Origin: an uncultured virus (IMG/VR IMGVR_UViG_3300020048_000013) | Lineage: Duplodnaviria; Heunggongvirae; Uroviricota; Caudoviricetes | Length of the DNA stretch: 64,000 nucleotides | Direction: 5' to 3' (one strand) | Virus record (IMG/VR): IMGVR_UViG_3300020048_000013 | In this document: one piece after another, positions 7,398-62,959 of the stretch | Position numbering within the stretch: the first letter of the stretch is position 1 | Layout: every line of letters starts with the position of its first letter | The notes under the pieces: model-generated | The model's database searches: none | What the model saw: the letters and a program-made list of their open reading frames with translations, nothing else | What the model was told of the DNA's origin: nothing | Made by a program: the position numbers and the translations under genes

Positions 7398-7418
7398 AAT
7401 GTTATTTTCGATTATTTA

Positions 7419-9179: not shown

Positions 9180-9225
9180 TTTTACCTCGTTAGTTAATTT
9201 AACAATTATTTTGTTCTTATATAAT

Positions 9226-9233
9226 TATTTATA
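9226..9233 (-). promoter_or_regulatory. T4-type late promoter TATAAATA; also at 11641, 13248, 14526, 16738, 19829, 29380, 32103, 33304, 51627 and 60063
   Basis: Exact octamer placed just upstream of starts of mostly structural genes; gp55 is present in the window. Confidence 0.7.
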
Positions 9234-9267
9234 ATTTAAAATACCAAAGTTGTATAAAATATTTTTT

Positions 9268-10524: not shown

Positions 10525-10541
10525 ATTTATCCTCTTAATTT

Positions 10542-10929
10542 TTATTTTATCTTTTTTATTAGTTTTAAACATTTGCGTTTTTCATCATCTATCATAACAC
10601 TAACTGTTGGTAAATGTTTATAACCGCTTTTATGTATTTCTTTATCTAATTTAACTACCATATTACCATGAATATATCCATCAACAACAACTCGTTCACC
10701 AGCTTTGACAACATGATTCTCAGGAAAAGATGGTGATACAAAATCTTTTATTACTAATAAGACATCTCCAGCAACAATATCTTTTTCAGATTCATCTATC
10801 TCNNNNNNNNNNTTCTGGTCCAAAATCTGTTATAGTTGGCATTTCTCTCGTCGACGAACATCCCATATCTCTATCATCTATTCCTTCATCAATAGATTCT
10901 TTATAATCTTCAAAAATAGATTTTATCAT
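10542..10929 (-). CDS. Probable prohead core/internal protein spanning an N gap
   Basis: Hand-translated start MIKSIFEDYKESIDE at 10929, open to the gap; lies between gp21 and gp22. Confidence 0.55.
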
Positions 10930-10930
10930 T

Positions 10931-11620: not shown

Positions 11621-11651
11621 ATAATTAACCTTTTTCTTATTATTTATAAAA

Positions 11652-12701: not shown

Positions 12702-12714
12702 ATTTTAATCTCCT

Positions 12715-13242
12715 TTATTCTGGTATTCCAGGGTCATCCGTTCCGTTTGTTAATATCATCCAACCGACAGGGAAAGTATCTATACTTGTATTCACTTCAT
12801 AGCTATAATTTGTTATTAACCAACCTTTATTATCATAAGGAATATTTTCGCCATAATAATAATTTGTAAGCATCCAAGGATTAATTATAATTTCTCCACC
12901 AGTTAAAGAAAATTCAGAACTAAATCCATAGACATATTCTAAATTAACAACACTTATTTTTATTTGATAATCGCTATTTGAATTATCTTCTAAAAGGTAT
13001 TGATAGACTCCATTATTCGGTGTGCTTGTTATTATAGTTTTATTAAATAATCCATTTTTGTATAATTCTAATTTAACATTTGGAAAATAAAAATTATTAA
13101 AATATCCGCTATTCCATAGAATTATTATTGTATATGGTTGTTCAAAAGTTCCGCCATCAGGAGAAAATATTCTTATATATGGAGACTTCGATCTCGTTAA
13201 TCTTGTATTTAATCGGTTAGATATTTCGTGTGTTAAATCCAT
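12715..13242 (-). CDS. Ig-like (Kre9/KNH-N-like) putative virion protein
   Basis: SPDGG...I.W...VKLELYKNG...TPNNGVY...YQIKI...S.EFSL pattern; late promoter upstream. Confidence 0.55.
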   Translation of the reverse strand: MDLTHEISNRLNTRLTRSKSPYIRIFSPDGGTFEQPYTIIILWNSGYFNNFYFPNVKLELYKNGLFNKTIITSTPNNGVYQYLLEDNSNSDYQIKISVVNLEYVYGFSSEFSLTGGEIIINPWMLTNYYYGENIPYDNKGWLITNYSYEVNTSIDTFPVGWMILTNGTDDPGIPE

Positions 13243-41278: not shown

Positions 41279-42713
41279 TTATCCTTATATTTCGTCAAAA
41301 AAATTGTTATTATGATACGGAAATTCTTCAAATATTCTTTTTTCTGCAAGTTTAGCATATTCTTCATTCAATTCTATACCAACATATTTCTTGCCTTGAT
41401 TTATTGCTTCTATTGCTGTTGTTCCAGACCCCATAAAAGGATCTAATACTATTCCTGCTTCGAAAGGAGCATTGCAGTCACAAGTAGCAATATTATTAAA
41501 TTCGCTTATTTTCGACATACTATTAAGAATATTTCTTTTTGTGTCGGATGCATTAGGCAATCCGTTACTTTCATAATCTTTAATAGCATTACCATCATAT
41601 TTTTCAACTTCACCAAAACCAACAACTTCTTTATAGTAAATCTTAGGTTTTCCGCACACAGAACACTGTTCCAAAGGACAACCAGCATCTATAGGAGTTT
41701 TACATAGCTCTAAAGGAAATGTTGCAAAATGTGCTTCCCTATATGGTTTTGTGTTTATATTCCAAGTGGTTCTTTTATTCTTACCCAAAGGATTTGGTCT
41801 CATCGATCTTTCTCTTTCAGGATATCCTATTCTTGCTATATGAGGATTATTATTTTTATATGGTTCTTTATTATTTTCTCCAGTATTTGCTCCGTCTGCA
41901 TGATATTTTCCATGATATTCTTTTACTTCTTCACCACCCCATCTATCAAGAGGTTCTGTATATGGATCAAATTGCTGTTTAAAATAATATTTTTTATTTT
42001 TAGTAAAGAAATATACTTTTTCAAAATCGACAGTAAATCTATCAGAAGCAGAAGACGGCATGACATTATTTTTTTTCCAAATTATTTCGTTTCTCAAAGT
42101 CCATCCTCTATTCTGCATCTCTATACTAAATCGTGCTGGAATATTACATAAATTTTTATGCATTTCTTTTGTAGTTCCACGAAGTTCGTTGGCTTCCTGT
42201 ATTCCAGTCGAATCAGAAATTTCTTCTTCTGTCTTAGGATTTAAATTGTCGTTAACAAAACCACTTCCGCTTTTTGTTCCGTATGTATCTCCGATATTAA
42301 CATAAATAGATCCATCTTCTCTAATAACTCTTTTAATTTCATCAAAAATATCACACAAATGCTTGATATATAAATCGAAGGTTGGTTCATTTCCCAATTC
42401 CCCACGCCAGCATCCGCACTTATTACAAAAATTAGAAGTAGCAGAAAAATGTATATCTTTGTTATGGCTATCCAACGCACCATTAGGTCCGCCGTCACTA
42501 ACCATACGAATTTCTTCTCCCCATACATGTTCACAATCTTTATCTCCATCCCACAATTGAGCAGCAGTCTTATAATTTCTCAATGCCCAATAAGGAGGAC
42601 TTGTCATGACCATATTAATACTATTATCTGGGAATGTTTTTAATACATCCAAAACATTCCCAACATATATTTTATTGGTTTTCATATTATCCTTATATTT
42701 CGTCAAAAAAATT
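41279..42713. repeat. 27-bp perfect direct repeat (41279-41305 and 42687-42713) flanking the methyltransferase gene
   Basis: ttatccttatatttcgtcaaaaaaatt at both sites; 18-nt partial third copy at 40296-40313. Confidence 0.9.
41285..42685 (-). CDS. DNA amino-methyltransferase (SPPY, probably N4-cytosine, beta class) with Cys-rich insertions
   Basis: TSPPY, HFATFP, VLDPFMGSGTT, GIELN; start chosen at MKTNKIY behind AAGGA. Confidence 0.92.
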   Translation of the reverse strand: MKTNKIYVGNVLDVLKTFPDNSINMVMTSPPYWALRNYKTAAQLWDGDKDCEHVWGEEIRMVSDGGPNGALDSHNKDIHFSATSNFCNKCGCWRGELGNEPTFDLYIKHLCDIFDEIKRVIREDGSIYVNIGDTYGTKSGSGFVNDNLNPKTEEEISDSTGIQEANELRGTTKEMHKNLCNIPARFSIEMQNRGWTLRNEIIWKKNNVMPSSASDRFTVDFEKVYFFTKNKKYYFKQQFDPYTEPLDRWGGEEVKEYHGKYHADGANTGENNKEPYKNNNPHIARIGYPERERSMRPNPLGKNKRTTWNINTKPYREAHFATFPLELCKTPIDAGCPLEQCSVCGKPKIYYKEVVGFGEVEKYDGNAIKDYESNGLPNASDTKRNILNSMSKISEFNNIATCDCNAPFEAGIVLDPFMGSGTTAIEAINQGKKYVGIELNEEYAKLAEKRIFEEFPYHNNNFFDEI

Positions 42714-43823
42714 ATTTTTTTTCTCGAAACTCCATCCGACATCATCCATCAATCTATTTAACGGAGCAACAAAAACTTTATCCCACATAGTATCATAATC
42801 AATATGGTCTTTAACTATATCATATAACATTGGGGGAAACTTATCTTGTAAATTTATAGCAATACTATTCAATCCAATTTTAGCTTCTCCGATTTCGTCA
42901 AGATAACATATCGCAATTTTAGCACCACTATAAATTTTTTGATAATCCATGCTCAAATTATTATCTTCCAAAAAACTATTATAAACCATAGAAGATTTTA
43001 CATGTCTCGGAGCACCTTTTTCTCCAATTTTATATTTATCCATATCCTGAACAGATGTCGGTTTTGCTATATCCAACATATCTAATTTCATAAATTCTTT
43101 TTTACATTTATTAATATATTCAATCATTTCGTCATTAGTTCCGTCGAATATAATTCTCAAGGAGTCATAAATTTTATCCCTAACCCAAACTGGAGAATCT
43201 CCGCGAATTATTTCCATTCCTTTTATTTTGAAATTATACTGTTTTTTATCGTAAAATAATCCTTTATGTAATATAAGTCTTGCGATATATTTCTTCGGAC
43301 TATGCATAATGATTTGATCACAATAAGATTCTATATCCATCTTCATGAGATTTTTAACATTCATTTTTTTAGCAAAATCTTCAAAAAATTCTTTTATGTT
43401 TGGTGCTATTTTTTTATTTACATAAGCAGTAGTTTTCTCGACAAAATCTTTAGAATCACTACATTCGATGGATGGAATAGTTATAAACATAGAATCTGTA
43501 TCGTTATAAAAAACTTTCGCTTCGTTCAATAACTTCTCGTCGATATATGCAGAAGAACCACGAACACATAATTGTCCGCAAGAAGTAACCGATTCTGCAT
43601 TGACTGGATGATTTATCGGACTATGTTTCTCTTTCATTATGCCATATAAAGCGTTGATTATTTTTGCTTTGTATATGTCATTTTCAATATCCCAGAATTG
43701 TTTAAATTCTGAGATTTTGTTTGTCAAAGCCACCAAGTCCGATATGTCCAATTCCTTTAAATTTATAGTAGATAATGAATCAAAACAATTTTTGTAATTC
43801 ATTTTTTGTAAATCTATATTCAT
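42693..43823 (-). CDS. gp43: Family B DNA polymerase, C-terminal part (motifs B and C, thumb); gp43B-like
   Basis: IINALYG, AESVTSCGQ, YNDTDS, KKY, IKGMEIIRGDSP; lacks exonuclease and motif A. Confidence 0.9.
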   Translation of the reverse strand: MNIDLQKMNYKNCFDSLSTINLKELDISDLVALTNKISEFKQFWDIENDIYKAKIINALYGIMKEKHSPINHPVNAESVTSCGQLCVRGSSAYIDEKLLNEAKVFYNDTDSMFITIPSIECSDSKDFVEKTTAYVNKKIAPNIKEFFEDFAKKMNVKNLMKMDIESYCDQIIMHSPKKYIARLILHKGLFYDKKQYNFKIKGMEIIRGDSPVWVRDKIYDSLRIIFDGTNDEMIEYINKCKKEFMKLDMLDIAKPTSVQDMDKYKIGEKGAPRHVKSSMVYNSFLEDNNLSMDYQKIYSGAKIAICYLDEIGEAKIGLNSIAINLQDKFPPMLYDIVKDHIDYDTMWDKVFVAPLNRLMDDVGWSFEKKNNFFDEI

Positions 43824-47162: not shown

Positions 47163-48503
47163 TCATACTTCATCTCCTGTTTGTTCTTCCATATCTTCGA
47201 CTCCTTTATCAAGATTATCTGTTTCTGCTTTAAGGAAAGTAAAAGATTTGAATTTAAATGCTTCTCCTGTATCTTCAAGTCTCACAACAACACCTTCAGT
47301 AGGAACTTTATTTCTACACATAGGTTCATCAAATTCCAAGTATTTTTCTCTCAATTTTATGAGAACATTTTCATGCCAATGTTGTTCTGTAGAAATTTCT
47401 GGAAATAAATTTCTAAAAGTTCCATAATATAATTCTGGAACTGGTTTTAATCCTCTCAAATTACACCAATTCTGAACTTGTTTTGCAGAAAACTCAAAAA
47501 CATTTCCGATAGCATTAGTATAAGTTATTCTATAAATGTATATTGCGTGTTGATTTTCTGCGCAACCATAATCAAAAGGTTTTTGAATAGATGCTCCTGT
47601 TGACAGATATCCAACAACTTCTGCGTAAATAGTCATGCCGTCTACTAAAAATTCTTTCAACTCATCGTTAGAAGTTTTGTAAATATTTTCTTTTATAGTT
47701 CCGCCATAGAAAGAATTAAACTCTTTTTCTCCTTCTTCAAATTGATTTTGAACTACTTTTCTTGATGAATAAATATTTCCAAATTCAGTAGTAATTACAT
47801 TTGCACCAAGTTTCTGTAAAATTCTTTGCCAAACAGAAAGTTTCTTTTTGACTAAAACTTTAGAAACTACTAAAGAAGTTCCGTGAAGTTTTCTTGTAAT
47901 AGACACTATAGTATCTGGATTAAATAAATGAATATTTTTACCAAGTTGAGAAGTGTCGTAATGTAGTCTGAATTGGTTATCAACTAATCTCGAAACTCTT
48001 TTAACTTTACCTTTACCATTAGCATTTCCTTGTCCTGGAGTTCTTTGATTTTTAGGTATATATTTTCTGCAAATTTCAAAATCTGCCCAGAAATCAAAAG
48101 AATCGCCAATATTTAATAATTCTCTATGTGCTTTCCCCATTGCGAATGTTAGATAATCAATTGGGCAGAAAAATCCCATTGAAGGATTTCCTTGTAATTT
48201 TTGACATTTGACTCTACCATTTTCTTCAAATAATCCTTTGTGAGTGATATCTTTGTTTATTTCTAATTTTCTGTAAAGAGAGTTTTCAAACAGAAATTCT
48301 TTTGATAATTGAGTTTCGACAGGAAAAAATAAACCAACATCACCAACTTTTGTGTCTTTTCCAATTACTACATTATTTCCGAAGATAGTAGTTGCTTGAA
48401 TTGTGTTGCACGGTTCTCCCTTAGCAGTAAACATAGGGATAATATTTTTAATTTCTACTACTGTTGCCGTGTAGTTAATATTTTTTGGTGTTTTAAATTC
48501 CAT
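47163..48503 (-). CDS. RNA ligase (Rnl2/DRB0094-like) with N-terminal OB-like domain
   Basis: Nucleotidyltransferase motifs TRKLHGTS, IYAEVVG, EGVVVR, FKFKS; start chosen by RBS at MEFKTP. Confidence 0.85.
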   Translation of the reverse strand: MEFKTPKNINYTATVVEIKNIIPMFTAKGEPCNTIQATTIFGNNVVIGKDTKVGDVGLFFPVETQLSKEFLFENSLYRKLEINKDITHKGLFEENGRVKCQKLQGNPSMGFFCPIDYLTFAMGKAHRELLNIGDSFDFWADFEICRKYIPKNQRTPGQGNANGKGKVKRVSRLVDNQFRLHYDTSQLGKNIHLFNPDTIVSITRKLHGTSLVVSKVLVKKKLSVWQRILQKLGANVITTEFGNIYSSRKVVQNQFEEGEKEFNSFYGGTIKENIYKTSNDELKEFLVDGMTIYAEVVGYLSTGASIQKPFDYGCAENQHAIYIYRITYTNAIGNVFEFSAKQVQNWCNLRGLKPVPELYYGTFRNLFPEISTEQHWHENVLIKLREKYLEFDEPMCRNKVPTEGVVVRLEDTGEAFKFKSFTFLKAETDNLDKGVEDMEEQTGDEV

Positions 48504-48516
48504 TATTTCTCTCCTT

Positions 48517-50044
48517 TTATTTCCAATTTTCACAATTAGATTTTGTGTTTTGAAGTCTTGTTTCTGTTTTATCACGACCATCCCACTGAATACAATACAT
48601 CTTATATTCTTCGTGTTTATCACTATTAATAAAATTTTTACAAGTGTTACAACTTTTAGTGTTTGGATTATGAGCACATTGTTTTTCGTGTTCATTCATA
48701 TTTAATTCATTAGACATTATACATTTACAATAACTACATTCAAATAATTTTTTCATATTAATACTCCATTGTGTTAAATATAGTTATTATGTTTTCTCCA
48801 TCCCACACATCAACCACTAACGGGTACCCACATTTTTTCTCTATAGCTATTAATTCATCTAAAGAATTTATCTCAATATCAATATCATTTACGTTGTCAT
48901 ATTCATCAAACGACAATCCTACAGATTTTAATTGGTCTCTTTCTTCTTTACGCAGTGGGCTAATTTTACCTTCACTGCTTTGAAGTTTGAATTTCATCGT
49001 TCTCTCCTGTTATCAAATTTTTAATCGCTTCAACAAAATCATCACAATAAAAAATCACACTGTCGTCCATATTACAATCATCACAATAACCCAAATTTAT
49101 ATTAACAGAACCTACCAGAAATGTGTTATTTCCGTCTCCGAAAAAATCATCACCGGTTTTTACGAGCATTCCGGGTTTAAGATTTGTTACACCCGATTCG
49201 TATTTCTTCCAATTCATTATTTCTCTCCTTCTATATCGTATTGTATTTCCAATGAATCCACATTAAATTCGTGTTTTGGTTTTTTTCCTGTTATTATAGT
49301 TGGACTATATGTAGTTCCGCTTTGACTGTTTCTAATTCTATTTTCTCTTTGGCAAATTATACATGCTTCATGTGCGTTTTTTGCTTGTACGAAATAAACA
49401 CCATCGGCATTAAGCGAGTCTTTTACTATAATTTTATACTTCATTATTCCTCTCCTTTTATTTTATAGTTAGCCATAAACCACACTAAGAATGAAGTACA
49501 TATAGCTACTGGCCACAGCCATTCGCGATAAATGGTCTCGTTGGAAAGTTTTAAACCCAAATACACAATCGACGGTATTAAAAACACATGCATAGTTGTT
49601 GAAGGCAATGCGTATTTTCGTTTAATTATTTTCATTTTCTAATTTTCTCCCAAGTTCTTGTGTTATCGCTATTTGTAATCAATTCGTATTTAGCTTGTCC
49701 TAAAAGTGCATCTATTGTTCCTGACATAAGTAACCAACAAATCGCACTCAAATACCATATAAAACTAGAGAATGTAAATTCTTCTTCTTTCAATGTAATC
49801 ACGGTAGCGATTATCATGGTAGCGAACAGCATTATTATTTTTAACGTTATTAATATCATTTTATTTCTCCCCTTTTTTCTTCTTTAACCATTTTATCATA
49901 CAGATCTAACAACAATCTTATAGCAGTATCTTTACTAAAATTTTCTTCATATTCGGAATGAGAACCAGTCCAACACCAGCCACCAATTACAGATTCTACT
50001 AAAATACAATCAACTTCTTTTTCAAAATCTTCCCTAGATATCAT
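48517..50044 (-). other. Run of seven small hypothetical genes, two of them membrane proteins
   Basis: Contiguous minus-strand ORFs 48517-50044 behind a sigma70 promoter. Confidence 0.6.
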
Positions 50045-50108: not shown

Positions 50109-50774
50109 TTAATTAATACTCCGTGTATTAACTCTTTTTCCACAATCAGAACAATAATCGACGTTGATACTATCGCCATAAGGAAACACATTTGTTTCTA
50201 TTTCTGTTCGTATATTATCATGAGAACAAACATTTAGTATATCAATAGCTTTTTGAGCAAGTTCGTCTGTCAATCCTGTTCTCCAAGAAGTATTCACAAA
50301 ATAACAACTTGGGTATATATCACAATCATCATCAATCATAACATATTTAAGATCTTCCCGATCTGAATATTCTTTATAGTTGGCATATATCCACTCTTGG
50401 ATTTCTATACCTCTGGGAACATGAGACTTTATTTCTATATTACTTTTCCCATGTTTTAAGTCCCATATTGTTGGTGTAATTCCTACCACTTCTCCGATAA
50501 TACCAACATCTTTTAAAATATCTTTAATGTTTGGCATATTTCTCCATACAGACGAAACGACGATTTTAGCACCAGTTTCTTTAATAATTTTATTAAGTCG
50601 TGCTACCGCATCGGGATCGAATTCCCAAGCATCGTGTTGTATATCAGACATATGTTTTTTATTATCCAAATACTCTTTGAATTCTGGCATCACATATCTT
50701 TTTTTATACCAATTTTCCGAATTAAGTACTCCATCAATATCTAAAAAAATGATTTTATCATATTTTTTAGGCAT
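50109..50774 (-). CDS. HAD-family phosphatase (RNA-repair HAD_SAK-like) with C-terminal Zn ribbon
   Basis: IFLDIDGVLN, IVVSSVWR, RGIEIQEW, YVMIDD, GLT. Confidence 0.85.
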   Translation of the reverse strand: MPKKYDKIIFLDIDGVLNSENWYKKRYVMPEFKEYLDNKKHMSDIQHDAWEFDPDAVARLNKIIKETGAKIVVSSVWRNMPNIKDILKDVGIIGEVVGITPTIWDLKHGKSNIEIKSHVPRGIEIQEWIYANYKEYSDREDLKYVMIDDDCDIYPSCYFVNTSWRTGLTDELAQKAIDILNVCSHDNIRTEIETNVFPYGDSINVDYCSDCGKRVNTRSIN

Positions 50775-50840: not shown

Positions 50841-51605
50841 TCACATTTTCCATTTTATTTTTCTTCCTTTAAACCATCCTTTATTTATCCAATTCGACAA
50901 TTCTTCTTTTTTAATTTTTTTATTTTCTTTTAATTCCATGTTATATATCCACAAAGAACCATATGATGGATTATTTTTGGGATTTTTATATCTTTCTTTA
51001 GCATCATCTCCTATTTTTTTCTTAGTTTCTTCGGATAATACTCTATCAAACATTTTATATCGTTCTCTTAAAGAATTACTAATTTTTTTCTTAGTTTCTT
51101 CAGTACATATAGCACCGATTCTTATAAAAACCAATTCGCCACTTAAATATCTCGGATCGTCTATAGAAACTTGATACACTACTCCATTTTCGTCTTTAAC
51201 AGTAACAGTCCCGGAACTATTTCCAACCAATTCGCCACTTAAATATCTCGGATCGTTTTTCGATATATTAAAAAGTTTTCCATCTTTGTCTTTAGCAGTC
51301 AGTCTACCAACAGCAAAACAATCATATCCACCAACACACATATTATAATTATCATCTCTTTTAATAAATTCTTCATTCACTAATTCAATTTCTTTATTAT
51401 TCATTTCTTCAAAACTATCATAATCACAAATAATTTCTTTTGTAAAATTTCCTCTGCCATATTTTTTCTGAGAGTTCTTTAAATAAGTTCCGCTGCCCAT
51501 ATAACCATCGTTAATATTATTAGTAACATGAATGCCAATATAAATCTTTCCATTAATATTATTTGTGATTTTATAAACCAAATAATGTTTCTTCTGTTCT
51601 TCCAT
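50841..51605 (-). CDS. Free-standing GIY-YIG (Seg-like) homing endonuclease
   Basis: VYKITNNINGKIYIG, GYMGSG, YN...GG, NUMOD3-like EETKKKI twice, DPRYLSGELV twice; late promoter upstream. Confidence 0.9.
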   Translation of the reverse strand: MEEQKKHYLVYKITNNINGKIYIGIHVTNNINDGYMGSGTYLKNSQKKYGRGNFTKEIICDYDSFEEMNNKEIELVNEEFIKRDDNYNMCVGGYDCFAVGRLTAKDKDGKLFNISKNDPRYLSGELVGNSSGTVTVKDENGVVYQVSIDDPRYLSGELVFIRIGAICTEETKKKISNSLRERYKMFDRVLSEETKKKIGDDAKERYKNPKNNPSYGSLWIYNMELKENKKIKKEELSNWINKGWFKGRKIKWKM

Positions 51606-53795: not shown

Positions 53796-54050
53796 TTATC
53801 CCCACCATTTTTTATTCAAATATTTAAAAATATCTCCGCCAAACACTGCAATCATAACTTCTTCGTATACATATTGATTATCATCGTCGTCTGGTTCTTC
53901 CGAATCTATGATATCTTGTGCTAACTTCTTGACATTACTCCAATCAATATCTGCTTTCATTTCTGGTTTTCTCATCTTTGACAATTCTTCATATTTTTTA
54001 CATTCTTTTTCAGTAGCAAATACTTTTCCATCTTATGCAACATATTTCAT
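53796..54050 (-). pseudogene. Small gene with in-frame TAA at codon 6 (or sequence error)
   Basis: MKYVA*DGKVFATEKECKKYEE in frame with track ORF 53796..53984. Confidence 0.55.
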
Positions 54051-54235
54051 GTTATCTCCTTTTCTAATATTATTTCAAAATGATATCTCACGTATCCACG
54101 ACCATCAAATTCATTACATAAATCTTGTTTTAAATTTACCAATCTCCAACCTTTATGACCCTCAGTATTTAAAAAACCTGACATTTCAGGAATAGATAAT
54201 GTTTTAATTACATATACATACTCATATTTTTTCAT
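54047..54235 (-). CDS. Small hypothetical protein (DUF4177-like)
   Basis: KYEY...LN.EG..GW.LV. Confidence 0.55.
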   Translation of the reverse strand: MKKYEYVYVIKTLSIPEMSGFLNTEGHKGWRLVNLKQDLCNEFDGRGYVRYHFEIILEKEIT

Positions 54236-54645
54236 TTATCTTCCTTTTCTAACAAATATTGATGATTATCTATTTCACACTCTACTTCCATATCTTTCAT
54301 CCACGATTTTTTGACTCCTTTCATAACATAATGCGAAGATTTTATCGTGGGTCTAAAGTTGTTATCATACATATGAACAGCAATAATTAAAGAAATCATA
54401 AAATCTAAATTTCTTTTTTCAATTTTCTTCATATTACCTTGTATCAGAATCCATTCATTATAACACGAAAATTGTTTGGGTTTTAAAATTATATCTGCAT
54501 ATGTTTTTGTGCTATCTTTTTTTACAATTTTATCGTATCTGTTTTCAATTACTGAAGCAACTGCAAGTTTTCCTGTAATAGATTCATGCAACGCTTCACT
54601 AAATATTGTGAATGCAATGAGTAATATTTGAAATATTGCCATCAT
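54232..54645 (-). CDS. SleB/Hydrolase_2 cell wall hydrolase
   Basis: IFSEA..E...GKLAVASVIENR, QFSC, IDNHQY. Confidence 0.85.
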   Translation of the reverse strand: MMAIFQILLIAFTIFSEALHESITGKLAVASVIENRYDKIVKKDSTKTYADIILKPKQFSCYNEWILIQGNMKKIEKRNLDFMISLIIAVHMYDNNFRPTIKSSHYVMKGVKKSWMKDMEVECEIDNHQYLLEKEDK

Positions 54646-54668
54646 AAATCCTCAATTTTAATAAATTT

Positions 54669-55328
54669 TTACCACACCCATTCGTCGCCGCGTCTTGTAT
54701 TTCCTAATATCTTTTTCTTTAGATTATCGAGTTCACGAATAATCCCATCTTTTTGAAGTTTGAGTGTTTCATTTTCTTCTCTAAGTTTTTTAACTTCCGA
54801 ATTATCATTCATTAATCCGAATGTTGTATTAATTCCATTTTTAAATATTGCCCATTTTGAGATATATTTATTTAATTCTAATCTTAAAGTTGATATAGTA
54901 TCGTTTGCTTCTTTCAATCTTTTTTCTAATATTTCGATTGTTCCGAGTTTGGTACATTCGCCCATGAGACGTGACATAACATATTTTTGCTGTTCTCTTA
55001 CTTTCCCAGAGCAAATTAATTGAAGTTCTTCTTCAAAAATATTACTGAGTAAGTAGCTGTGACGTTCGTTAATAATCTGATATTTAATATCATTCATTTC
55101 AGATGCTTGACATCTAGAAATACAATAGTCTTGATTTTTGTAACGAACCATATCACCCCTTTCGTATTTAGGAATTCTTGTCAAATCTTTAAATAATACA
55201 TAAATTCGTTCGCCATCTAACCTATCTACTACAGCCATCACACGATTTAGAACATACACATAACTAAATGATGATATAATTCCCTCAATACTTCCACATT
55301 TAACTTTGTCGCCTTTTTTGAAATTCAT
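54669..55328 (-). CDS. Hypothetical protein (SH3-like modules plus coiled coil)
   Basis: FKKGDKV and YERGDMV modules. Confidence 0.6.
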   Translation of the reverse strand: MNFKKGDKVKCGSIEGIISSFSYVYVLNRVMAVVDRLDGERIYVLFKDLTRIPKYERGDMVRYKNQDYCISRCQASEMNDIKYQIINERHSYLLSNIFEEELQLICSGKVREQQKYVMSRLMGECTKLGTIEILEKRLKEANDTISTLRLELNKYISKWAIFKNGINTTFGLMNDNSEVKKLREENETLKLQKDGIIRELDNLKKKILGNTRRGDEWVW

Positions 55329-55356
55329 TTTATCTCTCCTTTTTTAATTTTAAGTA

Positions 55357-55390
55357 AATATAAACAAAAAAAGGGCTAATGTCAAGCCCT
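55357..55390 (-). promoter_or_regulatory. sigma70-type promoter overlapped by the terminator of the pilin-like cluster
   Basis: TTGACA-N17-TATATT; AGGGCT/AGCCCT stem with T runs. Confidence 0.8.
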
Positions 55391-55412
55391 TTTTTAAGTA
55401 TTTTAAACATTT

Positions 55413-57191
55413 TTATTTTCTTATGACATCATTCCAATCATTTATCTTACCAAAAGTTGTAGTTGACCATCTATGATTTCTATTCAAACCATTTGGATCT
55501 TCGTTTGGATGATCTCCTGGACCACTACCACACATTGGTGGCAAAGGCTCGTCGGGTCTTAAATATCTTTGGTCTTGAACAAAAGTCTTAGGCCACTTCT
55601 GTGCAGTATCACTTGGACCACTCATAATTTCCTGTTGGTTGAGAACCATTGTCGGTCCGATATTGATTAAATTCAAATTAGTTCCACCGACACCTTTGGC
55701 ACTCAACTCACCAAATTTTGTTATATATGCCGTAGTAGAAAATATAAGTTTTTCATTCGGGAAGTAAATGGGCGGAACTGTTTTAACAAATTCTGCTTCT
55801 GTCATTCCTAAACAAGCTATTACAGCAAGGTGACCTTTTGGGTCATAAGTAATCATATCTTGCCAAATTTTAGTCAATAAAGCAAATGTTGGTTTCTCTA
55901 ACAGTGAAGTAAATTGTGAATTTAAATAATTCTTTGTTGCTTCCATTTCATATAGATAAAAATTATCTGTTATTAAAACTTGGTCTTTTTCTGTTACTAA
56001 AGTAAAATCATTAGCAGAAACCCCTTGTAAGCTTACTGTTCCATATTTTGCAGATACAGCTATGCCTTTATAAGCCCCTGAATAATCACCTATCTCAATA
56101 GTTTTAATAAGAGAAGATCCATTATATAATTTGGCTCTGGTTCTTGCTTGTCCACTTACAAAATAAGTTTCAATTTTTACTCCTACTGCACTACCAACAG
56201 CAAATTCCGAACCAATAAAATATGTTTTGTTCTGAGCTCCGTATTTAACAACATCTTCCCAAGTCCACACTACATTATCAAGGTTGAGTTCTTTTACATT
56301 CTTTTCATATCCGCCAAGCAATGAAGTGTTTGCTAAAGTCACTGCTTCTGCTTGATTAGAAACCTTTGCGGAATTTATACCCAATCCCAAACCATAATCA
56401 TGAGTAGGGTTGAATAAATTACCATCATTTTTATACCAAGAAGTTTGGTCTGCTGCAGATTTAATTTTTCCGTAGAATACAGGTCCTATTTTACCCGAAC
56501 CAGTAATATAATCAAAATGAACTAATCCATTAAAGTAACATTGACCATATCTCGTGTCTTGTTCGTTAAATCTTCCTTTAACACCATGAAATCCTGCTCC
56601 TGCTAAGGTAGCGTTAATCAATTCGGAATTAATAAACGGTTCGAGTTCGCCTTCGAGTAAATAATTATAAACATTCGACAAGCAAATATTAACTGATTGT
56701 CCTGTCTTATTATCCTTTGCATATGAATCTAAAATCCAAACCGCTTGAGTAGGGAAGCCTTTTCGAGCCCCTTTGTAACGAGCATTATACAATGTATAAT
56801 CTTCTGTATTCAATTCCAATATTTCGTTTTCTGTATTTCCGAATAACAGAGTTGAAGGGTGTAAGTAAACTATATCATTTACTGCCATGTTCTCGCTTTT
56901 TGGAAACAGAGATGTGGAAAATTGTTTACTTGTTTCGTCGTAAGTTTCATTCCCCACTATATAAGGAACGTCGAATCTTTTTCTTGTGCTGTCACTTTGG
57001 TTTACCCACCATCTTACATTATAATTAGAAGCACTTTCTGCCATCCAATATAATTTCAGATTGTCGATATTAGTACTTGTTGCTCTTTGAGTATTTCCTA
57101 CAAGTGCAAGAAATCCCATCGCCATAATCAATAGCACTACGCTAATCATTATCGCCATAATCAAAGAAAAACCTTTTTGCTTTTTCTTCAT
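55413..57191 (-). CDS. PilX/GspK-like large minor pilin (592 aa)
   Basis: MKKKQKG|FSLIM class III signal without Glu5, TM helix, LYWMAESA. Confidence 0.75.
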   Translation of the reverse strand: MKKKQKGFSLIMAIMISVVLLIMAMGFLALVGNTQRATSTNIDNLKLYWMAESASNYNVRWWVNQSDSTRKRFDVPYIVGNETYDETSKQFSTSLFPKSENMAVNDIVYLHPSTLLFGNTENEILELNTEDYTLYNARYKGARKGFPTQAVWILDSYAKDNKTGQSVNICLSNVYNYLLEGELEPFINSELINATLAGAGFHGVKGRFNEQDTRYGQCYFNGLVHFDYITGSGKIGPVFYGKIKSAADQTSWYKNDGNLFNPTHDYGLGLGINSAKVSNQAEAVTLANTSLLGGYEKNVKELNLDNVVWTWEDVVKYGAQNKTYFIGSEFAVGSAVGVKIETYFVSGQARTRAKLYNGSSLIKTIEIGDYSGAYKGIAVSAKYGTVSLQGVSANDFTLVTEKDQVLITDNFYLYEMEATKNYLNSQFTSLLEKPTFALLTKIWQDMITYDPKGHLAVIACLGMTEAEFVKTVPPIYFPNEKLIFSTTAYITKFGELSAKGVGGTNLNLINIGPTMVLNQQEIMSGPSDTAQKWPKTFVQDQRYLRPDEPLPPMCGSGPGDHPNEDPNGLNRNHRWSTTTFGKINDWNDVIRK

Positions 57192-57208
57192 AATTTCACC
57201 TCATTTAG

Positions 57209-57502
57209 TTAGTTAATCATATCTAATGCTTTTTTATACTCCATATTATCTGGGTATAATTTTATTAAATTTTCTATTGCTGATATAATCATATTATATG
57301 TTTTTTCATTTCTCATACCCCTACCAACAATAGTATAAGTAAATCCGTTTATTATTTCTTGTGCTGATAAGTTATAATCATTCACTTCTTTTAGTTCTGC
57401 CACTGTCGGATTTCTGTATGTGGTTCCTCTAAAAATGGTTGGTTTGCTTTCCAAATTTTCTTTTATGAAACTTTCTTTGTAATCTTCAAATATATCTGTC
57501 AT
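57209..57502 (-). CDS. Hypothetical protein with possible capsid-targeting N-terminus
   Basis: IFEDYKES identical to the N-terminus of the gene between gp21 and gp22. Confidence 0.6.
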   Translation of the reverse strand: MTDIFEDYKESFIKENLESKPTIFRGTTYRNPTVAELKEVNDYNLSAQEIINGFTYTIVGRGMRNEKTYNMIISAIENLIKLYPDNMEYKKALDMIN

Positions 57503-57519
57503 TATTTAATCTCCTTTAT

Positions 57520-57651
57520 TTACCATCTTAAATTTTCCCAACTACCCAAAAGAAATATAAACCAAACACCTACAACAGCAAGAGCTAAAATTACAAGACC
57601 ACCGATAATTCCGAAAGTCCATAACAACCAAACAGGTATAATAATAGTCAT
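57520..57651 (-). CDS. Small single-TM protein (43 aa)
   Basis: Hand translation MTIIIPVWLLWTFGIIGGLVILALAVVGVWFIFLLG... Confidence 0.55.
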   Translation of the reverse strand: MTIIIPVWLLWTFGIIGGLVILALAVVGVWFIFLLGSWENLRW

Positions 57652-57908
57652 TTTACATCCTTATATTTTTCTATAAATTTGTAAATATCATCAATTGTTT
57701 CGACATTTTCAGAAATCCTCCAATAAGGATCTTCGTTGGTAGGTGTTTTGTGGGTATAAATAATTTTCCAATCATCTTCAGGTAAATACACAAATCTTTT
57801 ACCATCCACTACCTTTGTAAAACTTTCGTTTATATCCTGCATACTTGACGGATCAACCGAATGTTTTGTTGAATACTCCCATCCCTCTTTTTTTAATCGT
57901 TCTCTCAT
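57648..57908 (-). CDS. Hypothetical protein
   Basis: 86 aa, tightly packed. Confidence 0.6.
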   Translation of the reverse strand: MRERLKKEGWEYSTKHSVDPSSMQDINESFTKVVDGKRFVYLPEDDWKIIYTHKTPTNEDPYWRISENVETIDDIYKFIEKYKDVK

Positions 57909-58520
57909 TTAGTCAGTATCCTTTTTTATATAATGATAATTCTCATAATCCTGTAATCTTTTTATATATTTCATGGATTCTCCGCATTTACCACAAACTT
58001 CACCCATCTTATCACTATCGGAATGTTCATATACATACCTACACTCGTCACAATTTTCAATTTGTTTATTGACAATTTCTATTACTTTATTTTTCTCTAT
58101 TTTAACACCTTTTACTACATAAGCAAAAAATATATCAGAATCATATCCGCTTTTTCCTCTTAGGTCACCGACCCAAACAACTTGCTCTCAGAAATATGTA
58201 ATATGCGAATACCCCATTTCCTTTGCTTCTTTTATCAAACCATTAAAAATTGCTTGTCTGTCGGATTTAGGCAAGGAATACCAACCATACTCTTTTTTAA
58301 AATCTTTAACGAAACCGTCTATCGTTTTATGTTCATCTTTATTATGATAACTATAAACATCATCATATATAATAGGAGGGCTGATTGTTCTTACAGCACA
58401 CATCTTTTCTCCTATAGCCCAATAAGGTTTTCCGTCTATATACCCACAAGGTTTTTCCAACTCTATAATATCTTCTGAAAATTCATAATCTTTAAGATAT
58501 ATTTCTACTTGTTCGCTCAT
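57909..58520 (-). CDS. Candidate selenoprotein (203 aa via UGA at 58188-58190) with C-terminal CxxC-CxxC
   Basis: Frame stays open 92 codons past TGA to a TAA abutting the next ATG; SECIS-like hairpin 11 nt after the TGA. Confidence 0.6.
58160..58176 (-). promoter_or_regulatory. Candidate bacterial SECIS element
   Basis: UUGGGUC-GGU-GACCUAA stem-loop, 11-nt spacer from UGA. Confidence 0.55.
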
Positions 58521-58538
58521 TTTCCATCCCTTTTATTT

Positions 58539-59036
58539 TTACCATATTATGCCGTCTGGGTTTGTTCTGCAATAGAAGGCATTAGTTATATTCGGAATTG
58601 TTAATGTTCCACTTGGGTCAATCATAGAAATTGATAAATCTATTTCGACCTTATGATATGCTCCTGTTATACTTGTTTTAAACGCGTCATTTATATTGTT
58701 TATTTCAAAAGCCTCTGCCCCAATTAGTAAGAAGTCATTTGAATTTCCATTAGCCGACAATCGCATTATCTTTTCGTTTTGAATAGTCCATTTAGTTATG
58801 GTTTTATCTGCATTAAGAATTGATAAGGAAGAGCCATCAGATTCCAATTTAGCCCCGCCTTTAACATCTCTACCAATATCCATCATAAGTCTCTGAACAT
58901 TTGAAGATAACATTGCTTTTCTTGTACTGTCTGAACTAATACTGTTTGAATTAGCAATAACATTAACTATTCCCAAACCAAGAAAACCAACAATCAATGC
59001 TACGACCATAACCTCAATTAGTGTAAATCCTTTCAT
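58539..59036 (-). CDS. PilW/GspJ-like minor pilin
   Basis: MKG|FTLIEVMVVALIVG; M.DIGRDVKGG helix end. Confidence 0.85.
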   Translation of the reverse strand: MKGFTLIEVMVVALIVGFLGLGIVNVIANSNSISSDSTRKAMLSSNVQRLMMDIGRDVKGGAKLESDGSSLSILNADKTITKWTIQNEKIMRLSANGNSNDFLLIGAEAFEINNINDAFKTSITGAYHKVEIDLSISMIDPSGTLTIPNITNAFYCRTNPDGIIW

Positions 59037-59293
59037 TTTTTCACCATATCGTTAAGTATTGTAGATATAATTTTAATATACTTTCTTTCAGGGAATTTTT
59101 TGTTGGTGTCGTTTCCAATATTCCAATGTGAACGAGCAGTCATCAATAAACTTTTTTCTATATCCAATCTATCATTTTCTATATCTTCTACGGATATATT
59201 ACCCTTAGATATCTGTCTTTTGAAATAATGATAATCGTCATCATCAACACCATTAATGATACTTTCATATATTTCGTTTAATCCTTTTTTCAT
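59033..59293 (-). CDS. Hypothetical protein
   Basis: 86 aa, ATGA-coupled on both sides. Confidence 0.6.
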   Translation of the reverse strand: MKKGLNEIYESIINGVDDDDYHYFKRQISKGNISVEDIENDRLDIEKSLLMTARSHWNIGNDTNKKFPERKYIKIISTILNDMVKK

Positions 59294-59643
59294 TTAAAAA
59301 CTTCCTCTGGGTCTTCTAAACTATTCGTTCCGTCAAAAATACAACCTTCTGCTAAAAACTTCTCTATAAAATCATCTGGGGATTGTCCAGGATTTAATGT
59401 ATGAACAATAAATCCGTTTTCTTCTGTAATTAATGAATCTTTTTCAGAAACAGCACCATTATATTTTGAACCATATTCCCCAGTAATCTTTTTAGTAACT
59501 GGGTCGACATCGCCCCAAGTTCTTTCAGTATAATTACTTATGGTTTCAATATAATAATTCTTTCCCGTCTTCAAATCTTTAACAATACATCTTCCAGTTT
59601 CGTCTGTATTTGTTAAAAATTGTTTATTGAAGTTTTTATTCAC
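59290..59643 (-). CDS. Phage hypothetical protein
   Basis: DETGR...WGDVDP...YGSKY.GAV...SLITEENGF. Confidence 0.65.
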   Translation of the reverse strand: MNKNFNKQFLTNTDETGRCIVKDLKTGKNYYIETISNYTERTWGDVDPVTKKITGEYGSKYNGAVSEKDSLITEENGFIVHTLNPGQSPDDFIEKFLAEGCIFDGTNSLEDPEEVFK

Positions 59644-59646
59644 TTC

Positions 59647-60057
59647 TTACTCCGTATCATTAGTGAAAGTTCTTGCTTTCAATTCATTTTTTCCGTTCAC
59701 TTCTATCCATTCTACAGTTGCTTCAATTTCTGTCGTTGGAGTGGTTGGTGTCGGGTGTAATAGTCTTGTTGCTCTAAATGTCAACAAATATTCTCTCGAT
59801 TGATTTTCTGCTAAATATTTTGTTATAACTTTAGGAGTTGTTGAATAAGGAATAACAAAATCCAACAATGCTGTTGCTGTTGATAGTCTTTGAATTTCCT
59901 CGAAGTGTTCGTTTATTATTAGTGATGCGTTTGTCAAATTAGAATTATGAATCTGTAATCTTTGACAATAAACAAACGACATTAACATCCCTGTTATTGT
60001 GATTACTAATATCAGGGATGTTACGAGTACTTCTATTAATGTAAATGCTTTCTTCAT
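59647..60057 (-). CDS. PilV/GspI-like minor pilin
   Basis: MKKA|FTLIEVLVTSLIL; A..I.....EEI helix; C-terminal IEATVEW strand. Confidence 0.85.
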   Translation of the reverse strand: MKKAFTLIEVLVTSLILVITITGMLMSFVYCQRLQIHNSNLTNASLIINEHFEEIQRLSTATALLDFVIPYSTTPKVITKYLAENQSREYLLTFRATRLLHPTPTTPTTEIEATVEWIEVNGKNELKARTFTNDTE

Positions 60058-60065
60058 ACTATTAT

Positions 60066-60506
60066 TTATAAAATAAATTTAAAGTTGACATTTGATTTTA
60101 TATGACTAAAAAGAAATTTTCCGTCATTCTGTAGAGGAATTTCTAACGTAAAAACATACTTAGGAATATCTTCTTTACTCTTTACTGTCAAATTAGTAAT
60201 CATGACTTTTATAAACTGTGCTTCGCAATAAGGAACATTTTCCGATTCTATTTCAGAAAACATGACACTTGTGTTTATCGTTGTCTGATCACCAAAATCT
60301 ACACTTAAAAATGGCATTGGTTGAATATTTAATAATGTAGATGCTATTGCAGAATTAAATTCTGTTAAAGAATCATAATCAATATCATCAGATTCTAATT
60401 TAACTTTATAAATTTCGAATCTTTCTTTTTCTCCACTACCATTAGTTTCTATTTTAGCACCAGCAGATACCGATGTTATTTTTCCTGTAAACATTTTATT
60501 AAACAT
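60066..60506 (-). CDS. Hypothetical protein
   Basis: 146 aa ORF. Confidence 0.65.
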   Translation of the reverse strand: MFNKMFTGKITSVSAGAKIETNGSGEKERFEIYKVKLESDDIDYDSLTEFNSAIASTLLNIQPMPFLSVDFGDQTTINTSVMFSEIESENVPYCEAQFIKVMITNLTVKSKEDIPKYVFTLEIPLQNDGKFLFSHIKSNVNFKFIL

Positions 60507-61607
60507 TATATTTCTCCAATTCTTCTTTACTGTTTTTTACTTTAAGATAAGATGATGCATTAGTAATACTATCCAACACTTCCATTTCTTTTTTAAATGG
60601 ATTTAATATAATAGTCGGCATTATTCCAGACGAATCATTGAATCCCAGTTGTCTTGTATATGGATCAGCGACCTTATAACTAGAAGGTCTAATTGCAACT
60701 CTTCTCTTGCCTTTCCAATTAAATAATTCCCAGGCATCTTCATGATTATGAGCAACAATTACAATATCAGAATCATAAACACCATTTCTCAACAATTGTT
60801 TTGCACAATTTGTTAAATTTATGTTACTTTGATGTGAATATTTGTGTCTCATATAAAGCTCATAAGATACTCCAGAAGGAAATTCGAAAGTTATGAGATA
60901 TTGATGACTACAATAATGCACTTTATTATCCTTCACCAAATTTCCAACAATATCTATTCCAGAAACTTGTTTAGATCTCAAATCATGATTTCCGCCAACA
61001 ACAGCAAGAATTTTTTCTGCCGTCATTGTATTAATCCAATGAGTTAATAATGCAGTTTGTTCTTTTGGACTTGTCGTNNNNNNNNNNTCGTAGCATTAAT
61101 AACTGCTTCCTGCATCTTAGAATTGATAAAATTATCTATCAAATCTCCAGCATGAATTACTCCCAAATAATCGCTATTTCTGATAGCTTCAGCATCAATT
61201 CTCATTTTTTCATAATCACAACCTTCTCCGCCGATATGAGAATCTGATAGAACTACGATTCCAAAAAACTCATCGTATGGTAATTTCACAACAAGCTTAT
61301 CATCTTTTTTCCAATCATCGATATATAATTTAGATCGATATTCCATCTGTCTCCAAAATTCTTCTCTTTCTTCTTCTAAAACTTCGTCGGGTTTAATATT
61401 GTCTATAAAAGTAATAGGCAATCTTTTTGACTGATTATTAATTCTCACATTATGTGACAATTTATTATCTTTTATACAACATCTGACTGATTCGGCAGTC
61501 GTTCCCAATTCCCTTGCTATTTTTTCATATTGTCCGTTTAATCCTAGGACCAATGGATTTTCTTTCAAATAATTCATCAATCTAATTTTCAAATCACCTT
61601 TTGCCAT
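60499..61607 (-). CDS. Calcineurin-like metallophosphoesterase with N-terminal HTH-like segment (two track ORFs joined across an N gap)
   Basis: SDSHIG and GDLID before the gap; GNHD, RH and AHNH after; downstream frame open to the gap. Confidence 0.85.
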
Positions 61608-61689: not shown

Positions 61690-62959
61690 TTATTTACTCA
61701 ACTTTTCCGTAATTCCAAGAAGCATGTTGATGCCAATTGCATCCATAACACTGTTACTTCCGCCTTTACCATCTCCGCCACCCATAACAATAGTAGGAAC
61801 TTTAACTTTTGCTAACTCTGCAGCCACACCAACTTTGGTCTTATAATCCCATTCTGCTCTTTCTTGTGGAGNNNNNNNNNNATCTACTTGCTTCGGAATC
61901 AGCTTGTCCTCTGAAAATTGTAGCTTTCTTTTCTTCTTCTGCTTGTTTAGCTTGTAACTGAGCAACTTTATATTCCTGTTCAGCTTTTATAACTCCAACT
62001 TCATATACTTTCTGAGCATCAGTAACTTCTTTAACTTTTTCAACCTCTCTTGTATATTTTGCAGTAGCCACATTCGCTTTACCTTGTTCTTCTGCTGTGA
62101 TAGCATCCTGTTTAGCTCTTAATGCTGACTGTTTTGCAAGTTCTGTTTTCATTGCTTCATTCTTTCTTGCTGCAATTTGTTTTTTAACTTCATCATCAAA
62201 ATCAGGTATATCAATTACACATTCCGCAACTTCACAACCAAGTTCCTGTAATCTTGTCGGAACTCTTTTTGCTGTTCCATCTTCATTATATACAATAACA
62301 GTAACACTCTGTTCTACCATTTCGCCTGTTGCTATATTTTCAACTTTAACAACTTCTTTCTTAGTTACATAAATACCATTTCTTAATTGGTCATCAACTG
62401 ATTGCTGAAATAATGCGACATTTGTATAAGCATCCTGTGCTGTTCTTAAATTGGCGGATAGTTTAATAGCATTGTTTACAATAGGAACTACACCACTTCT
62501 AATAAAATGCTCATAACCACCTTCATAATCTCTTTTTAAAACCAAACATCCTTCAGTAGTTGTGGGCAATTTAACCCTAACAAGACCCGATATTTTAGCA
62601 ATAGAACCATCATTAAATATAACATCTACTGGAACCGCGCCTTCACCAACATCAGCAATATCACCAGCACCGAATCTCAAAGTAGCCACATTTCTATAAG
62701 TATCAATAGTACCAAATCCTTGAATATACAATCCTGGATTGTGTCTCACAGACATAGTTCCCGACCAAGCCGCCTGTTTAATCTGAAAATGCCCCGCTTT
62801 ATTAGTTTCCCATATTTTACCCGAAAATATTACTAACATTATCAGTCCTATAGCAACAACACCCATAAGAACAGATTTTTTGATTGATAGTTTCGACCAA
62901 TCGAATTTATTATATTTGTTAACTGTGTCGTCTGATTCTTCTTCTCTATTGAATCCCAT
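61690..62959 (-). CDS. SPFH/band 7 family membrane protein (C-terminus in a second frame across an N gap)
   Basis: N-terminal TM, SPFH-like core, AE/AQ-rich coiled coil, VPTIVMGG tail. Confidence 0.8.

Follow-up and report, generated by a model that had tools for sequence, protein, structure and literature searches.

A core complex of minor pilins primes the type IV filament and then caps it. Here we report three genes encoding such pilins, one small, one mid-sized, and one large, in a freshwater T4-like phage; the genes lie in a 64-kb stretch of DNA (here called the window) from the 197-kb contig of the uncultured virus IMGVR_UViG_3300020048_000013 of IMG/VR, and searches of the window cover those 64 kb. 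Among the described systems that they resemble is the pilA2-pilA3-comZ cluster of Thermus thermophilus. ComZ combines a GspK-like pilin domain with a triangular solenoid, similar to that of the ice-binding protein FfIBP, placed before the last strand, an arrangement argued to fit only the tip of the pilus, and it binds the GspI-like pilin PilA2 with a Kd of 0.69 uM (PMC6561018). GspK itself carries an alpha-helical insert, at a position different from that of the ComZ solenoid (PMC6561018). In cyanobacteria, PilV, PilW, and PilX form a three-family priming complex, alternative sets of which share one machine, and PilX has a solenoid between its penultimate and last strands (Schuergers et al. 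2026, PMC13759059). Pilus components are also known from phages: P-FimU, encoded by prophages of Pseudomonas (F10-like phages), replaces the host FimU at the pilus tip, leaving motility intact and blocking tip-binding phages, and PilA-like genes occur in virulent phages (Sztanko et al. 2026, PMC12952977).

The order of the three window genes is that of the Thermus cluster (GspI-like, GspJ-like, large tip pilin), although the two sets are only 9-12% identical and show no sequence-level match, neither PilA1 nor a FimT/GspH-like fourth gene lies beside the window trio, and the window set is phage-encoded. The large subunit has the same two-domain anatomy as cyanobacterial PilX, but the cyanobacterial sets belong to another phylum, include an extra FimT family member, and have no detectable sequence relation to the trio, the profile matches of the large protein being 95 members of a narrow family. 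Like P-FimU, the trio consists of phage-encoded homologs of host minor pilins that would rely on the pilus machine of the host; unlike P-FimU, a single FimU/GspH-class gene of temperate phages, it comprises three genes, one each of the I, J, and K/ComZ classes, and belongs to a virulent-type T4-like phage. An earlier annotation of the window (the original prediction) had described a PilV-PilW-PilX-like set and held that no T4-like phage with a full trio was known. The gene order, the orthology, and the predicted complex reported below support the first claim, except that the large subunit is ComZ-like and not a PilX_N protein. As to the second, we found in the literature only the single prophage FimU and phage PilA-like genes, and no phage with an I-, J-, and K/ComZ-class set (supplements of the P-FimU paper aside); nothing was found on phages of Delongbacteria, the putative hosts. 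Our preferred reading, to which we give roughly even credence, is that the phage acquired a cellular set of core minor pilins from Delongbacteria-type bacteria and that its copy of this set puts a phage-specified tip on host-built pili.

The trio in cellular and phage genomes

All three genes lie on the minus strand (Table 1), and their coordinates, N termini, and lengths proved correct as first called. A six-frame regular-expression search from every open reading frame (ORF) start in the window revealed no further prepilins, in keeping with the earlier annotation, the class III signal with a hydrophobic stretch being present in just these three. Each protein has a full-length BLASTP match to the corresponding gene of a chromosomal small-mid-large operon, at identities of 32-42% (small), 26-39% (mid), and 31-52% (large), and sequence comparison showed all three genes to be orthologous to that operon. 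It was found on contigs of 35-45% guanine-plus-cytosine (GC) content assigned to Candidatus Delongbacteria and UBP11, and on one labelled Bacteroidia but with the same synteny. There the operon is contiguous, with small, mid, and large proteins of 132-148, 160-194, and 600-654 amino acids (aa), the large gene being last, and the small-mid-large order was seen at 16 of 18 cellular loci (L006 deviates, and L015 is cut by a contig end). Its flanks are chromosomal, with genes for GAF, DUF1385, ribosomal protein L31, DUF6029, and MeaB, and no pilus machinery is adjacent. Cellular matches had been proposed as a means of naming the host; they point to Delongbacteria-type genomes with orthologous operons, and we infer that the phage infects bacteria of this type. 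Trios may also be paired in cells: L008 has two of the main family in tandem (5447-8609 and 8992-11836), and in L005 (168-2711, 3276-5996) and L020 the additional set is a distant one whose large subunit measures 530 aa. These paired trios recall the multiple minor-pilin sets of cyanobacteria and myxobacteria.

The window itself belongs to a T4-like phage, as originally stated: it has a GC content of 29.3%, is about 97% coding on the minus strand, and contains the core genes gp23, gp20, gp21, gp55, gp46/47, gp61 (primase), and a split gp43, together with genes for the tail tube, a gp2-like end protector, RNase H, and RNA ligase. Its capsid protein is only 29% identical to its closest match in 50,697 phage records, in Campylobacter phages, and the lineage is therefore a distant, undescribed one. 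Equally in line with the earlier annotation, the window holds no pilus machinery, since T2SSE, T2SSF, secretin, and Peptidase_A24 were unmatched in 95 minus-strand ORFs of at least 45 aa. Five cellular genomes (1.6-2.5 Mb) each gave four to seven T2SSE-family matches, in ORFs of about 360 to 740 aa, and exactly one Peptidase_A24 match each (five of five). By frame size alone, the long T2SSE frames may be PilB-type and the short ones PilT-type ATPases.

Three further phage contigs, L010, L001, and L033, carry such a trio; they have 26-30% GC and T4-like genes. In L010 the encoded proteins run 136-84-82-165-67-596 aa and in L001 132-166-60-589 aa, and the synteny with related phages that had been proposed as a check is thus present, the trio standing beside phage ORFs in both. 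The window and L010 trios are about 60% identical (63% for the small protein). L033 (6001-8412 of a 59-kb IMG/VR contig, GC 26%) represents a third T4-like lineage, with a contiguous trio of 127-148-519 aa flanked by genes for a gp5-like baseplate hub protein and a gp63-like RNA ligase. This trio is much more distant, its large protein matching the large family with an hhalign probability of 97.3% (E 2.7e-11). At least three T4-like phage lineages therefore have such a trio, and scans of viral contigs with the small and mid profiles gave the contig of L001 as the sole close relative, plus L033. The interleaving with phage ORFs pointed out originally is real in the window and is not a general trait, since the L033 and cellular trios are contiguous. 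Three other viral contigs, of 168, 35, and 48 kb, each have a single ORF with a perfect KGFTLIEV motif (L029:6001-6459, 152 aa; L030:5995-6339, 114 aa; L031:5959-6189, 76 aa); these are unrelated to the trio beyond the helix.

Predicted structure of the large subunit

The large protein has the leader, the Gly at position -1, and the Phe+1 of a prepilin and is missing Glu5, a feature noticed at the outset and found in 21 of 21 aligned family members. A search for PilX_N (PF14341) had also been proposed, and here the result was negative: the protein has no Pfam match at E up to 0.1 and no PHROG or NCBIfam membership, and its match to NCBIfam GspK is weak, N-terminal, and far below the cut-off (E 0.022). 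A feature search of the Atlas returned neighboring clusters with PF14341 in 12-16% of members, which we treat as a lead only, and a structure search with the Atlas model of the protein, which is poor (predicted local distance difference test [pLDDT] 0.59), gave nothing usable.

Prediction with AlphaFold2 (AF2) from a 21-sequence alignment gave a model with a pLDDT of 84.4 and a predicted template modeling score (pTM) of 0.74. It consists of an alpha-1 helix at residues 10-63 (54 residues), a pilin sheet at about 77-175, a triangular beta-solenoid at about 181-547, and a last strand at 574-582 that would return to the pilin domain, the predicted order being strands up to residue 174, then the solenoid, then the last strand. 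The sole significant Foldseek matches were three chains of Thermus ComZ (6qvi; E 7e-6 to 3e-5). VIA-align gave ComZ 6qvi at Z 14.0 (347 residues aligned, root mean square deviation [rmsd] 11.2, model residues 37-582), followed by about 12 ice-binding (DUF3494) proteins, whose Z scores on residues 181-547 were 10.6-12.4 (about 190 residues aligned, rmsd about 3), among them FfIBP 4nu2 (Z 12.1, rmsd 3.1, 191 aligned, residues 181-541). On the evidence of the model, the fold is shown to be ComZ-like, a pilin domain without Glu5 joined to a beta-solenoid, and as in Thermus ComZ the ice-binding-protein-like triangular solenoid is predicted to precede the last strand. Classification of the large subunit as a PilX_N protein was accordingly rejected in favor of this ComZ-like architecture.

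The window protein is well maintained, if maintenance is judged by invariant residues: it retains all 47 invariant columns of the 21-sequence alignment and has 29 homologs of similar length at 33-59% identity. The phage proteins are among the shortest, with 589-597 aa in the window clade and 589 aa in L001, compared with 603-656 aa in the other 14 alignment rows. No match to the large protein was found by tblastn in the 50,697 phage records, and a profile search of 1.84 billion representatives recovered no more than 95 proteins with an E-value of 0.001 or lower, 22 of them at 1e-30 or lower, from which we conclude that this ComZ-like tip pilin family is small, rare, narrow, and previously unnamed.

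The small and mid subunits

The mid protein shows every feature of a class III signal peptide, namely a short, basic leader with a terminal Gly, Phe+1, Glu+5, and a hydrophobic stretch of about 20 residues, and exceeds the cut-offs for N_methyl PF07963 (22.6 versus 21.2 bits) and TIGR02532 (21.0 versus 16.3 bits). The PF07963 search suggested earlier thus recognizes this protein and neither of the other two, as the small protein, which carries the motif but with Ala at -1, scores just below the cut-offs (17.6 bits for PF07963 and 15.3 for TIGR02532) and the large one has no match; cellular orthologs of the small protein do exceed them, at 27.8 and 28.6 bits. All 18 mid proteins have Glu5, as do 16 of the 18 small proteins; the other two have Asp. 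Similarity between the small and mid families is confined to the N-terminal helix. Profiles of the large, small, and mid families (A1, A2, and A3) likewise matched only the N-terminal helix of known pilins among PDB sequences, and the NCBIfam models for GspK, GspJ, and GspI were unreached, with helix-only matches far below the cut-offs. The mid protein in particular lies outside TIGR01711 gspJ (15.8 versus 64.85 bits) and NF041002 ComGF (20.9 versus 80 bits).

At the level of predicted structure the mid protein is easier to place. Its AF2 model (pLDDT 82.3) matched XcpW in VIA-align at Z 9.5 (rmsd 2.8, 118 aligned), Thermus TTHA1219 at Z 9.3, and GspJ at Z 8.0, with EpsJ in the Z 8.0-9.5 group and the pilin module of Streptococcus sanguinis PilB at Z 7.5-8.0. 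The top 12 rows consisted entirely of minor pilins and pseudopilins, the GspJ/PilW class predominating (Z 7.5-9.5, rmsd 2.6-3.9, 100-142 aligned), and the next, unrelated row had Z 4.9; Foldseek E-values were weak (0.011-0.12). The model shows a GspJ/PilW-like fold, and the pilin fold expected from the prepilin signals is thus predicted for both the mid and the large proteins. Assignment of the small protein to the GspI/PilV/PilA2-like class rests on its size, its gene position, and the complex model described below.

The best matches of the mid fold (XcpW, EpsJ, and GspJ) are pseudopilins of the type II secretion system (T2SS), and together with the weak GspK match of the large protein they might suggest that the trio serves a T2SS-like piston that exports a phage or host protein and makes no external pilus. 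We regard this as very improbable. The large protein resembles ComZ with its solenoid and not GspK with its helical insert (PMC6561018), the type IV pilin TTHA1219 is as good a match to the mid protein as the pseudopilins are, and some of the cellular T2SSE frames, at about 360-400 aa, are possibly PilT-type retraction ATPases, judged by size alone.

A predicted ternary complex

The three chains were modeled together without their membrane helices (small 27-136, mid 25-165, large 30-592), each with its own alignment. A complex of the soluble parts was predicted with an ipSAE of 0.90 in three runs, a level that 116 of 157 solved complexes attained, compared with two of 215 mismatched pairs. Replacing the large subunit with unrelated proteins gave 0.00 and 0.00, and replacing the mid subunit gave 0.62, the best of the controls. 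Contacts agreed between runs by at least 81%, and the pLDDT of the partner was at least 85. A heterotrimer like the one originally envisaged is therefore predicted for these soluble parts. Most of the low-error contacts join alpha-1C and the last strand of the small subunit to alpha-1C of the large one, and the mid protein contacts the helix of the large subunit and its residues 563-577, beside alpha-1; as judged by the 0.62 control, the small-large interface is predicted to be strong without the mid subunit. The predicted tight small-large pair parallels the ComZ-PilA2 pair measured in Thermus, and the predicted assembly is like GspI-GspJ-GspK (3CI0) and XcpVWX in being a small-mid-large heterotrimer with an apical subunit without Glu5 and a mid fold matching GspJ, XcpW, and EpsJ; it differs in that the helical insert of GspK lies elsewhere and the window proteins do not reach the NCBIfam models of the GspK/J/I families. 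GspIJK and XcpVWX complexes have already been solved, and the high score may therefore reflect likeness to them only and not binding of these copies.

Transcription signals

The small-pilin gene is preceded by an TATAAATA box, which we take to be the T4 late-promoter consensus, 5 nucleotides (nt) upstream of its ATG and overlying the stop codon of the upstream ORF. The total number of such boxes in the window is at the level of chance (24 versus 21 expected), as it is in L010, L001, and L033. Their placement is not random, however: 12 of the 16 on the minus strand lie 5-46 nt before an ORF start, compared with 8.5% of positions, and the ORFs concerned are mostly structural genes, among them those of the capsid, protease, portal, and tube. 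These 12 boxes (9226, 11641, 13248, 14526, 16738, 19829, 29380, 32103, 33304, 45349, 51627, and 60063) form, by their placement, a clear T4-type late-promoter set in the window. On the presumed promoter-to-start spacing of T4, a 5-nt gap would put the transcript start at or next to the AUG, so that the box may mark a late, leaderless start of the pilin transcription unit; the same gap is found at the ORF starting at 13242. A scan for sigma-70-like promoters gave a number at chance (63 versus 63.2 expected). At the other end, a terminator-like hairpin with an 11-bp stem and a T-run, 18 nt past the stop of the large gene, is likely to end the unit.

Possible functions of a phage-encoded pilus tip

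If the trio specifies the tip of host-built pili, the three prepilins would insert into the inner membrane of the infected cell and be trimmed by the host prepilin peptidase, and the tip complex would assemble on the host platform and ATPase in competition with host sets, so that new pili would carry a phage-specified solenoid tip. By analogy with P-FimU, the most likely pay-off would be receptor replacement: tip-binding phages, whether competitors or the phage's own progeny, would fail to adsorb to infected cells and debris. Late expression, suggested by the late-promoter-like box, would fit masking before lysis. Maintenance of the genes counts in favor of such a role, as all 47 invariant columns of the large protein are retained and the trios of the window and L010 share about 60% identity.

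Several observations weigh against this reading. The known exclusion genes of T4 are early, and the sole promoter-like signal here is of the late type; moreover, L010, L001, and L033 lack an TATAAATA box at the corresponding position. The host is deduced from gene relatives, and the closest cellular copy is only 52% identical, in genomes 6-16 GC points richer. The phage large subunits show no extra occluding loops, a difference from P-FimU, and the solenoid is no more variable than the other domains (mean identity of 60% in the phage clade and 51% in the cellular set), which means that there is no arms-race signature like that of P-FimU. Finally, of the six small and mid proteins encoded by the window, L010, and L001, five have Ala in place of Gly at position -1, a substitution found in none of 30 cellular copies; the exception is the window mid protein, which keeps Gly. 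Gly is retained at this position in all large subunits and in the whole trio of L033. The leader Gly is described in a review as critical for prepilin cleavage (PMC4471445), and processing by the host peptidase is therefore assumed and not assured. The substitution could slow or prevent processing, or it could suit a particular peptidase.

Taken to its conclusion, poor cleavage would make the trio a means of jamming the pilus. In that case the small and mid proteins with Ala would bind large subunits of phage or host in dead-end complexes at the platform, priming would fail, and pili and receptor would be lost. The small-large interface predicted to survive without the mid subunit (the 0.62 control) fits this scenario, as does the finding that FimU overexpressed alone disrupts pilus assembly (PMC12952977). 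We nevertheless think jamming unlikely. Pneumococcal pilins whose leader naturally ends in Ala are processed (PMC8727766), and Gly is retained in the phage large subunits, the window mid protein, and the whole L033 trio; a plug would require neither the invariant residues nor the whole solenoid that these proteins retain, nor three full-length genes.

A different use of a working tip would be to have the phage set prime a filament of its choice, either one for uptake of DNA as a source of nucleotides or an adhesive one that would keep infected cells close to new hosts, with no masking of receptors. ComZ is a tip DNA receptor required for competence (PMC6561018), and cyanobacterial core minor-pilin sets prime distinct filaments on a shared machine (PMC13759059). 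Consistent with this, cellular genomes have one or two alternative trios (the L008 tandem and the second, distant sets of L005 and L020), and the solenoid is well conserved among the phages, as would be expected of a working binding domain. However, the lysines implicated in ComZ cannot be mapped at 9-12% identity, and the solenoid is no marker of competence because both cyanobacterial PilX subfamilies have one. Re-purposing of this kind seems to us unlikely.

Replacement of the receptor by a phage-specified tip, the reading we prefer, would extend a phenomenon shown only recently. The rewriting of a host receptor with pilus parts is known from prophage FimU (2024-2026), where one linker subunit is involved and the phages are temperate Pseudomonas phages; with the trio it would involve a complete tip of three mutually fitting proteins, a large apical adhesin included, in at least three virulent-type T4-like lineages of an uncultured phylum. 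This suggests that control of the pilus tip may be a general battleground or tool in phage biology. The trio also supplies a host lead, Delongbacteria-type bacteria, for an unassigned phage lineage.

Integrity and origin of the locus

Contigs from two sequencing runs of one study covered all 30 bins of positions 54000-61000 at 100% identity and without joints, and short contigs of these runs extend across the boundaries where pilin genes adjoin phage ORFs. There is thus no sign of the kind of break that, in the original prediction, would point to chimeric host DNA. Coverage in the two runs is low (about 3-5), and they probably are, or at least may be, the source sample, which makes them weak as independent support. 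These two points are what could be said for regarding the trio as an artefact or passenger, that is, as chimeric host DNA or as recently captured, decaying genes with no role. We find such an origin scarcely credible. In a run from a second study, the large and small genes recur as a variant with 90-99% similarity whose sequence diverges in the interleaved parts; the pilin genes of the window are separated by phage ORFs, and their GC content is phage-like (32-35%, with 29.3% in the window and 35-45% at the cellular loci); their frames are intact with all invariant residues retained; and the phage clade is monophyletic (Shimodaira-Hasegawa-like approximate likelihood ratio test [SH-aLRT] 99, quick tree). 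The same arrangement at about 60% identity in a separate contig, L010, and the trios of L001 and L033 are a stronger argument against a chimera than the run contigs.

A quick IQ-TREE maximum likelihood tree of 37 large proteins placed the window in a clade of six rows (the SH-aLRT 99 clade), nested among cellular sequences, and L001 elsewhere. Phage context was seen for two of the six (the window and L010), the other four being called phage by clustering. In the window, L010, and L001 alike, a metallophosphoesterase gene lies directly upstream of the trio, and the simplest account of the origin of the trio, given this conserved site and the separate placement of L001 in the tree, may be a single old insertion followed by exchange of alleles with hosts.

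Exchange of this kind would also fit a late takeover of the host pilus machine in which the ComZ-like-capped filament is the phage's tool and no shield, either for intake of DNA to feed replication of a 197-kb AT-rich genome or for tethering to uninfected hosts, which the burst would then reach. Repeated exchange with successive hosts would maintain the fit between the set and the host machine and would then have produced the conserved insertion site and the placement of phage clades in different cellular clades. We judge this proposal to be quite unlikely.

Other features of the locus and the window

The pilin genes and the other features with assigned coordinates are listed in Table 1. The ORFs between the mid and large genes are tightly packed, with stops overlapping starts, and the interleaved ORFs scanned (117 and 86 aa between small and mid; 110, 86, and 97 aa between mid and large) had no Pfam or PHROG match. 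Of the remaining two in the second group, the 43-aa ORF (57520-57651, minus strand) encodes a single-pass membrane peptide, and the other, a small ORF resembling a CxxC...CxxC zinc ribbon (about 57909-58100, minus strand), ends at 57909 and has an uncertain start. The 86-aa ORF next to the mid gene (59033-59293, minus strand) is 95% identical over 82 aa to L010:4644-4898, compared with about 60% for the adjoining pilins, implying either very strong constraint or recent exchange.

Table 1. Features of the pilin locus and T4-type core genes of the window
Feature	Position	Strand	Description
Small minor pilin	59647..60057	-	136 aa; leader MKKA|FTLIEV; Glu5 present; Ala at -1
Mid minor pilin	58539..59036	-	165 aa; leader MKG|FTLIEV; Glu5 present; GspJ/PilW class
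Large tip pilin	55413..57191	-	592 aa; leader MKKKQKG|FSLIM; no Glu5; ComZ/PilX-solenoid class (predicted)
Two ORFs between small and mid genes	59033..59643	-	117 and 86 aa; non-pilin
ORFs between mid and large genes	57209..58520	-	110 aa, possible CxxC zinc-ribbon ORF, 86, 43, and 97 aa
TATAAATA box	60063..60070	-	5 nt upstream of small-pilin ATG, over stop codon of upstream ORF
Terminator-like hairpin	55367..55395	-	11-bp stem, T-run; 18 nt past large-gene stop
gp55 late sigma homolog	6533-7261		
gp23 capsid	7419-9179		T4-type core gene
gp21 protease and gp20 portal	27377-29350		T4-type core genes

Elsewhere in the window, there are eight masked runs of exactly 10 N (5868, 10803, 15394, 37406, 45546, 46994, 61078, and 61872), two of which break ORFs adjacent to the locus, those of the metallophosphoesterase (61044-61607) and an SPFH protein (61841-62959). 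The B-family DNA polymerase (gp43) is split into minus-strand ORFs at 1-1179 and 42693-43823, about 41 kb apart, and on the coding strand the C-terminal half precedes the N-terminal (exonuclease) half; L001 likewise has a stand-alone C-terminal half (11953-13080). An RNA-repair-type module, consisting of an RNA ligase and the HAD domain of Swiss-Army-Knife RNA repair proteins, is accompanied by a NADAR domain protein and a homing endonuclease (47163-48695, 50109-50774, 3136-3870, and 50841-51605 for the module and these others). Finally, a 2509-aa protein (19839-27368, minus strand) contains a minor-tail-protein segment, a Laminin_G_3 domain, and YadA-head repeats and is a candidate giant fiber or adhesin, possibly the receptor-binding protein of the phage.

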